DNA from: Escherichia coli
GTDB taxonomy: Bacteria > Pseudomonadota > Gammaproteobacteria > Enterobacterales > Enterobacteriaceae
Assembly: GCF_003334255.1 (NCBI RefSeq)
Contig: NZ_QOWU01000008.1
Direction: 5' to 3' (one strand)
Length of the DNA stretch: 64,000 nucleotides
The notes below the pieces were generated by a model. It saw nothing but the letters and a program-made list of their open reading frames with translations, did not search any database and had not been told where the DNA came from. Each line of letters opens with the position of its first letter. The first letter of the stretch is position 1. Positions 63,650-64,000 of this stretch are shown here, in pieces. Made by a program: the position numbers and the translations under genes.

Positions 63650-64000
63650 GTGTAGTTCGAAATTTATACAGATGAGAGGCGGCCTGATAAGACGCGCGAG
63701 CGTCGCATCAGGCAGTCGGCACTGTTGCCGGATGCGGCGTAAACGCCTTATCCGGCCTACGGAGGGTGCGGGAATTTGTAGGCCTGATAAGACGCGCAAG
63801 CGTCGCATCAGGCAGTCGGCACCGTTGCCGGATGCGGCGTAAACGCCTTATCCGGCCTACGGATGGTGCGGGAATTTGTAGGCCTGATAAGACGCGCAAG
63901 CGTCGCATCAGGCAGTTGGCACTGTTGCCGGATGCGGCGTAAACGCCTTATCCGGCCTACGGAGGGTGCGGGAATTTGTAGGCCTGATAAGACGCGCAAG
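63650..64000. repeat. REP/BIME cluster (at least 3.5 tandem units, period 100-110 bp), truncated by the window edge
   Basis: GGCCTGATAAGACGCG recurs at 63671, 63781, 63881 and 63981, alternating with GCCGGATGCGGCGTAAACGCCTTATCCGGCCTAC. Confidence 0.9.

Follow-up and report, generated by a model that had tools for sequence, protein, structure and literature searches.

A tandem repeat at the edge of an Escherichia coli window is the promoter-distal part of REP325, a BIME-2 cluster in the yjdM-yjdN intergenic region

The right end of the window, i.e. the whole stretch of 64,000 nucleotides of Escherichia coli DNA that was analysed, carries on its minus strand phnC (ORF 62253..63041) and yjdN (also phnB; ORF 63174..63617, 147 amino acids), the DNA of the latter being identical to that of MG1655 and its product annotated as a VOC family metalloprotein in all matching genomes. 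A unique 60-nt leader (63618..63677, minus strand), in which a ribosome-binding site, GAGG, precedes the ATG by 8 nt, connects the yjdN start codon to a tandem repeat of 3.2 units that fills the last 323 bases of the window (63678-64000). The leader sequence is the same in genomes having from 1 to 6 repeat pairs, and a promoter scan of its MG1655 equivalent gave no promoter-like site. On the other side of yjdN a GC-rich inverted repeat, CGGGAGG...CCTCCCG (63146-63172), lies directly after the stop codon and before the region of the phnC promoter; a U tract is absent. The last 1 kb of the window matches all 5,426 complete E. coli genomes, K-12 strains share ~100% identity with its last 25 kb, and compared to MG1655 the window is identical from 61000 to 63823.

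In a preliminary description of this DNA an array was reported upstream of yjdN and running off the window edge, both of which we also see, and it was held that its extent and the gene beyond could not be judged from the window. The latter is true of the window as such; however, extension to the right in complete genomes identifies the gene beyond as yjdM (phnA), and the array ends 160 or 260 nt past the window in those genomes that match its end exactly (see below). In all of the genomes so extended the array stops 14 nt before the yjdM stop codon, yjdM is on the same strand as yjdN, and the divergent crfC/rdcA comes next. Inspection of 15 annotated complete genomes showed the yjdM stop on one side of the array and the yjdN start on the other in every case (15/15), that is, outside genes, and hence the repeats are not embedded in a conserved protein-coding gene; such an embedding had been named beforehand as the finding that would speak against a REP array. 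Since it is bounded by these two codons and both genes are on the same strand, the array is intercistronic, 3' of yjdM and 5' of yjdN, with yjdN being the gene downstream of it in the direction of transcription.

Tandem Repeats Finder reported the repeat at 63681-64000 with a period of 100, 3.2 copies, 97% matches, no indels and a score of 612, and a separate repeat search gave three 120-nt copies spaced by 100 and 100 nt with 98-100% identity. The period is thus exactly 100 bp and not 100-110 bp as first estimated (a 113-bp period belongs to another array in the window, at 33822-34309), and the window contains 3.2 rather than at least 3.5 units. Likewise, the span originally given, 63650-64000, holds from 63678 onwards, while 63650-63677 is unique yjdN leader.

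Each 100-bp unit is composed of one Z2-type and one Y-type palindromic unit, inverted relative to each other and joined by a 13-nt linker, and a 17-nt spacer separates neighbouring units. Using search patterns for Y and Z2 that were derived from the array itself, and not from an independent published consensus, the first palindrome (GTAG-GCCTGATAAGACGCGCAAGCGTCGCATCAGGC) was found at 63678, 63778 and 63878, with a partial copy at 63978, and the second (GCCGGATGCGGCGTAAACGCCTTATCCGGC-CTAC), which is on the opposite strand to the first, at 63727, 63827 and 63927; for both patterns 0.00 matches were expected in shuffled sequence, and both unit types were also found at other loci of the window. 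The orientation alternates throughout, Y matching on the plus strand and Z2 on the minus strand, in agreement with the earlier statement that two palindromes alternate. Specifically, the outermost Z2-type unit (63678..63713) has three mismatches to the pattern and is followed by the head-to-head linker AGTCGGCACTGTT (63714..63726; recurring at 63814-63826 and 63914-63926 with 1-2 substitutions), the first Y-type unit (63727..63760; no mismatches, CTAC on the plus strand and hence a GTAG foot on the minus strand) and the tail-to-tail spacer GGAGGGTGCGGGAATTT (63761..63777; recurring at 63861-63877 and 63961-63977). Then follow Z2-type unit 2 (63778..63813, GTAG foot on the plus strand), Y-type unit 2 (63827..63860), Z2-type unit 3 (63878..63913) and Y-type unit 3 (63927..63960), all matching the patterns, and finally the first 23 nt of Z2-type unit 4 (63978..64000), which is cut by the window end. 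The feet thus appear as GTAG at 63778, 63878 and 63978 and as CTAC at 63757, 63857 and 63957; the GTAG foot is present in all internal units, while the outermost Z2 (63678) reads GGCG on the plus strand instead.

This repeat belongs to REP325, a BIME-2 cluster situated between yjdM and yjdN, and represents its promoter-distal part. Qian et al. (2015; PMC4550694) placed REP325 in the gap separating yjdM (phnA) from yjdN (phnB) and described it as six 77-bp repeats, each consisting of Y and Z2 with a linker (labelled 'l') and separated by identical spacers (labelled 'U'), that are transcribed as naRNA1-6; the 17-nt spacer GGAGGGTGCGGGAATTT is the core of their 'U' motif and its transcribed (minus) strand is C-rich and G-poor. 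Moreover, the Rfam family RF02564 (naRNA4/CssrE; gathering score 59.5) gives a minus-strand match to each of the three full units, with 106.7-111 bits: the 77-nt Y-linker-Z2 RNA unit that is the last before yjdN (63681..63757, 106.7 bits) and the naRNA-type units of the same length at 63781..63857 (111 bits) and 63881..63957 (106.8 bits). The array is consequently real, non-coding and already known as an experimentally dissected element; it is among the most-studied REP clusters in E. coli, and neither the name REP325 nor naRNA1-6 had been attached to it in the preliminary description.

BIME-2 elements are defined by inverted z2 and y REPs with a GTAG foot, a mismatched stem and a short linker, and also by tandem multiplication and a copy number that varies among strains (Ton-Hoang et al. 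2012, PMC3333891). The array has y/z2 units in alternating orientation, the GTAG foot, imperfect palindromes and a non-genic position, which bears out its earlier classification as a REP/BIME array and fits BIME-2. Leaving aside the named motif classes S, s, l and r, tandem copies and a short (13-nt) linker are also present, and the copy number varies, with 1, 2, 4, 5 or 6 pairs and one irregular array (see below). A CRISPR array was considered and rejected, since all segments of the 100-bp unit recur and there are no unique spacers.

ORFs of 56-66 amino acids can be read on both strands of the array, among these 63708..63908 and 63808..63999 (both minus strand), and NCBI PGAP sometimes calls a frameshifted, incomplete 'hypothetical protein' pseudogene within it, as in PEC1003 (1707-2015) and in strain 30088. 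These are the signs in favour of the repeats encoding protein. Since 100 is not divisible by 3 the frame shifts with each unit and every reading frame in the array stops within two units; scans of the array ORFs gave no match in NCBIfam and no significant match in Pfam; in one-pair strains, where the array is 85 bp, no ORF of at least 20 amino acids is confined to the yjdN-yjdM gap; and RefSeq usually annotates no CDS there. Because of the frame-shifting period, the absence of family matches and their impossibility in one-pair strains, the array ORFs are artefacts of a mechanical search, as had been concluded for the two named above, and the PGAP calls are spurious, REP-derived annotation artefacts. 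That the two ORFs encode proteins is accordingly extremely improbable.

On the RNA level two imperfect hairpins form in a single unit (63781..63857; -42.8 kcal/mol, z = -4.8), each of them with an internal mismatch or bulge, and the fold of two units reaches -99.6 kcal/mol (z = -8.3). In a comparison of 11 Y-Z2 pairs, drawn from this locus and others, 4 of the 24 base pairs are preserved through changes on both sides. The RNA strand of the array has 35% C and 26% G (C/G ratio 1.35); the excess resides in the spacers, with most of the RNA being hairpin. A promoter and terminator scan of MG1655 gave neither a promoter-like site nor a terminator inside the array. An intrinsic (Rho-independent) terminator was rejected, there being no hairpin-plus-U tract and no run of at least four T residues on the RNA strand. 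As the array has neither promoter nor U-tract terminator, any transcript through it should start at the yjdM promoter. By comparison with MG1655 the first hairpin starts 14 nt after the yjdM stop codon, which falls within the 15 nt noted for REP effects on translation (bioRxiv 10.1101/2024.07.17.603846).

The three units of the window are identical to units 1, 3 and 4 of MG1655 and unit 2 is absent, so the window, as judged from its sequence, carries an allele different from that of MG1655. Its last 441 nt are found exactly in 11 genomes, which are non-K-12; four of these 11 were followed further, and three have five pairs with the array ending 160 nt past the window while one has six pairs with the end 260 nt past. 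We therefore predict that 1.6 or 2.6 further units lie beyond the window, ending ...GCGGCGCGAGCGCCTTATCCGGCTTAC and followed by the 14-nt gap and the yjdM stop codon. Six pairs, making up a 583-bp array, are present in MG1655, W3110, ER1709, G1/2 and A134_1EC, and also in strain N921 as judged from its 657-bp intergenic gap; five pairs were found in CP61_Sichuan and strain 164, four in W3110-P, two in one O157:H7 strain and a single 85-bp pair in EE72d.

To survey pair number, 59 genomes were sampled at even steps using the unique flanks only as query. A single pair is the commonest state (34 genomes), and two pairs were found in 8, four in 4, five in 3 and six in 9 genomes, with an irregular 560-bp array in 1; for all pair counts, assemblies may collapse or mis-polish tandem arrays and individual counts may err. 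One record, initially set aside as an IS1 case, was counted in the six-pair class: the suggestion of an IS1 inside its array was rejected, the IS1 being upstream of yjdM and the array a normal one of six pairs. Pair number tracks similarity to K-12-type flanks, and one-pair arrays dominate among the more divergent records.

The outermost units are unlike those further inside and look like the sole pair of one-pair strains: the proximal foot is GGCG or GGGAA, and in the distal Y the loop is GCGAGC and the foot GTAA, just as in those strains. This resemblance suggests that the internal units are later amplifications. Copy-number variation is a general property of BIME-2, and TnpA-REP cleaves REPs and exchanges strands there in vitro (PMC3333891). 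The array would gain or lose whole 100-bp units via slippage or unequal recombination between near-identical units, and the REP-associated transposase TnpA-REP (RAYT) might provide an alternative route of expansion and contraction. The W3110 derivative W3110-P (3682-4061) and its evolved descendants have four Z2-Y pairs where the reference W3110 (intergenic 621-1277) and MG1655 have six, which means either that a loss of two units took place within a laboratory time scale or that the repeat was collapsed in the assembly. In the irregular 560-bp array of strain JX21CE8 (941-1574) the first Y is truncated, a CATCAGG segment occurs in duplicate and the linkers are of mixed types, a pattern which indicates rearrangement beyond gain or loss of whole units.

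Several other elements were noted in the window. The array at 33822-34309 has 4.3 units of 113 bp that are 96% identical, lies between the convergent ORFs 32468..33781 (plus strand) and 34312..35001 (minus strand), and gives four RF02564 (naRNA4) matches of 71-79 bits on the plus strand; in the stem of its Y units U-A stands in place of C-G, a compensatory change, and we take the array to be probably REP321, between gltP and yjcO. RF02564 also matches isolated Y-Z2 pairs at 23292-23362 (84 bits) and at 61125-61205 (69 bits, just downstream of phnD), and it is in effect a detector of any BIME-2 pair; for annotation, 'naRNA4' matches in Rfam should be taken to mark ordinary Y-Z2 REP pairs and not dedicated RNA genes. 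Further to the left of yjdN, phnE (window 60319-61169) is split around CGCCAGCA, an 8-bp repeat in 2.9 copies at 60679-60701, into two ORFs that overlap (60319..60687 and 60537..61169, minus strand). MG1655 and W3110-P have the identical sequence here, and their annotation treats phnE as a frameshifted pseudogene. The possibility that phnE is intact, with the 8-bp repeat in two copies, was rejected, direct comparison giving the K-12 sequence and two ORFs. The split phnE is presumably the known cryptic phn allele of K-12, and on sequence grounds it supports, and is consistent with, a K-12-like origin of the window. Rfam also identified the Hfq-binding sRNA sraL (15914-16054, minus strand, 153 bits) and a SECIS_2 selenocysteine insertion element (36776-36830, minus strand, 87 bits), which starts 2 nt beyond the 559-amino-acid ORF 35095..36774 (minus strand) and presumably belongs to a selenoprotein gene that an in-frame UGA interrupts. 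Short imperfect tandem repeats with a 21-nt period (75-84% matches) are present at 51927-52012 and 12493-12532 and probably lie inside coding sequence.

With respect to function, the literature best supports a role of REP325 as an attenuator before yjdN that depends in part on Rho and, in addition, stabilises the yjdM mRNA. In a preprint by Harris et al. (bioRxiv 10.64898/2026.03.23.713779), deletion of REP325 is reported to raise yjdN RNA ~8-10-fold and to lower yjdM RNA ~3-fold at the native locus and far more on plasmids, the array to give a ladder of hairpin-length transcripts, and bicyclomycin to lift read-through from 23% to 39%, only with the full 12-hairpin array; the preprint also states that REP325 was not recovered by an in vitro Rho-binding screen. 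The functional evidence is this single 2026 preprint, it concerns the six-pair allele of MG1655 and not that of the window, and it is at odds with what one of the same laboratories had published before. On the view taken from the literature, the array is transcribed from the yjdM promoter towards yjdN within a yjdMN transcript, and its stacked hairpins shield the upstream yjdM mRNA against decay and attenuate read-through into yjdN ~8-10-fold, partly via Rho. On the RNA strand the C-rich, G-poor spacers, recurring every 100 nt between the hairpins, may provide unstructured patches for Rho. Such patches could explain why Rho dependence was reported for the full-length array only, and repeated C-rich single-stranded patches are a plausible basis of length-dependent Rho loading. 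Taken as a whole, i.e. the anatomy and locus of REP325, the partly Rho-dependent attenuator before yjdN that stabilises the yjdM mRNA, and the steps inferred here, we consider this account to be probable.

The pair number, which is 1 in most of the sampled E. coli, 2 in O157:H7 and 4-6 in K-12-like strains, and which in MG1655 differs from that of the window, raises the idea that the number of 100-bp units is a heritable rheostat of the yjdM:yjdN expression ratio: long arrays may engage Rho through having enough C-rich spacers, and short arrays may let transcription reach yjdN. We offer this tentatively and would rather doubt it; if true, array length is a fast-evolving regulatory polymorphism and not neutral repeat instability.

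The same figures are open to a reading in which the array is selfish or neutral DNA, a REPIN-like pair inserted 3' of yjdM and amplified in some lineages by RAYT (TnpA-REP) or by slippage. A pair number that varies between 1 and 6 (one 560-bp array being irregular) and tracks K-12-type flank similarity, outermost units differing from internal ones that look amplified later, and four pairs in a W3110 derivative against six in the reference W3110 are all in its favour, as are the cleavage and recombination of BIMEs by TnpA-REP in vitro and the copy-number variation typical of BIME-2 (PMC3333891). With one pair in most of the sampled E. coli, the long array is dispensable for a role of the locus, and this fits neutral or selfish expansion equally. 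Such an origin is, however, compatible with function, and large local expression effects are measured in the preprint; the compensatory changes that keep the hairpins across loci suit selection for an RNA function, and equally selection for recognition by the transposase. We see this reading as possible, albeit with the balance tilted against it.

The model in which HU and naRNAs condense the nucleoid is disputed. It regards the units as naRNA genes, with 77-nt, two-hairpin naRNA1-6 binding HU and bridging cruciform DNA at distant REPs, whereby the chromosome is condensed, and it has the backing of HU binding, decondensed nucleoids upon REP325 deletion and their rescue by plasmid-borne naRNA4, 3C contacts dependent on HU and REP325, and in vitro DNA condensation seen by AFM (PMC4550694). 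Rfam curates RF02564, all three units of the window score 107-111 bits, and each unit folds into two stable hairpins; yet the RF02564 matches to ordinary Y-Z2 pairs elsewhere in the window mean that a match does not equal a dedicated RNA gene. The 2026 preprint (bioRxiv 10.64898/2026.03.23.713779), which has the senior author of the 2015 paper among its authors, contradicts the model: according to it, nucleoid volume is unchanged by deletion or overexpression, a stable HU-cruciform-naRNA4 ternary complex was not found and Hi-C gave no long-range REP-REP contacts. A single pair in most of the sampled genomes is moreover hard to reconcile with a core role in chromosome architecture, and we judge the model unlikely to account for the array. 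Somewhat less likely still is a role at the DNA level, with the array being a high-affinity binding and cleavage site for DNA gyrase that relieves supercoiling near the phn region. Espeli and Boccard (1997; cited in PMC1475751 and PMC2817692) are reported to have found that gyrase binds BIME-2 elements more strongly than those of BIME-1 and cleaves BIME-2 in vivo; this support is at the level of the family, however, and the RNA-level effects reported for REP325 are left unexplained.

For annotation, the analysis removes two spurious ORFs and names the gene beyond the edge as yjdM. Among sequenced E. coli only a minority have the six-pair array of the reference, which is relevant when generalising from experiments on the MG1655 REP325. 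As a discovery the locus carries little weight because REP325 is already named and experimentally dissected, and the new points, namely the one-unit difference from MG1655, the six-pair state being in the minority and the spacers being C-rich on the RNA strand, are only modest.

Compared with the BIME-2 family (Gilson, Bachellier and Hofnung; PMC3333891) the array is alike in its alternating z2/y REPs, GTAG feet and mismatched stems, and also in having a short linker inside the unit, in being multiplied in tandem and in a copy number that differs between strains; with respect to that definition, the S, s, l and r motif classes aside, we found no difference. The array at 33822-34309 likewise consists of tandem Y-Z2 pairs that match the same Rfam model as the right-edge array, but it has a 113-bp period, another spacer, another Y variant and lower scores, and it is not inside an operon. 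Typical REP clusters have 1-4 hairpins. With the classical REP mRNA stabilisers and the REP-associated Rho-dependent terminators, REP325 shares a location between cistrons or in a 3' UTR and hairpins that lack a U tract, and both upstream stabilisation and downstream attenuation are reported for the classical systems as well as for REP325; it differs in that the MG1655 array has 12 hairpins, with Rho dependence reported for the full-length array only. Finally, the array of the window and REP325 of MG1655 (EcoCyc REP325) have the same locus, flanks, 100-bp unit, Y and Z2 units, linker and spacer, and they differ in that unit 2 of MG1655 (linker CACCATT) is missing from the allele of the window.
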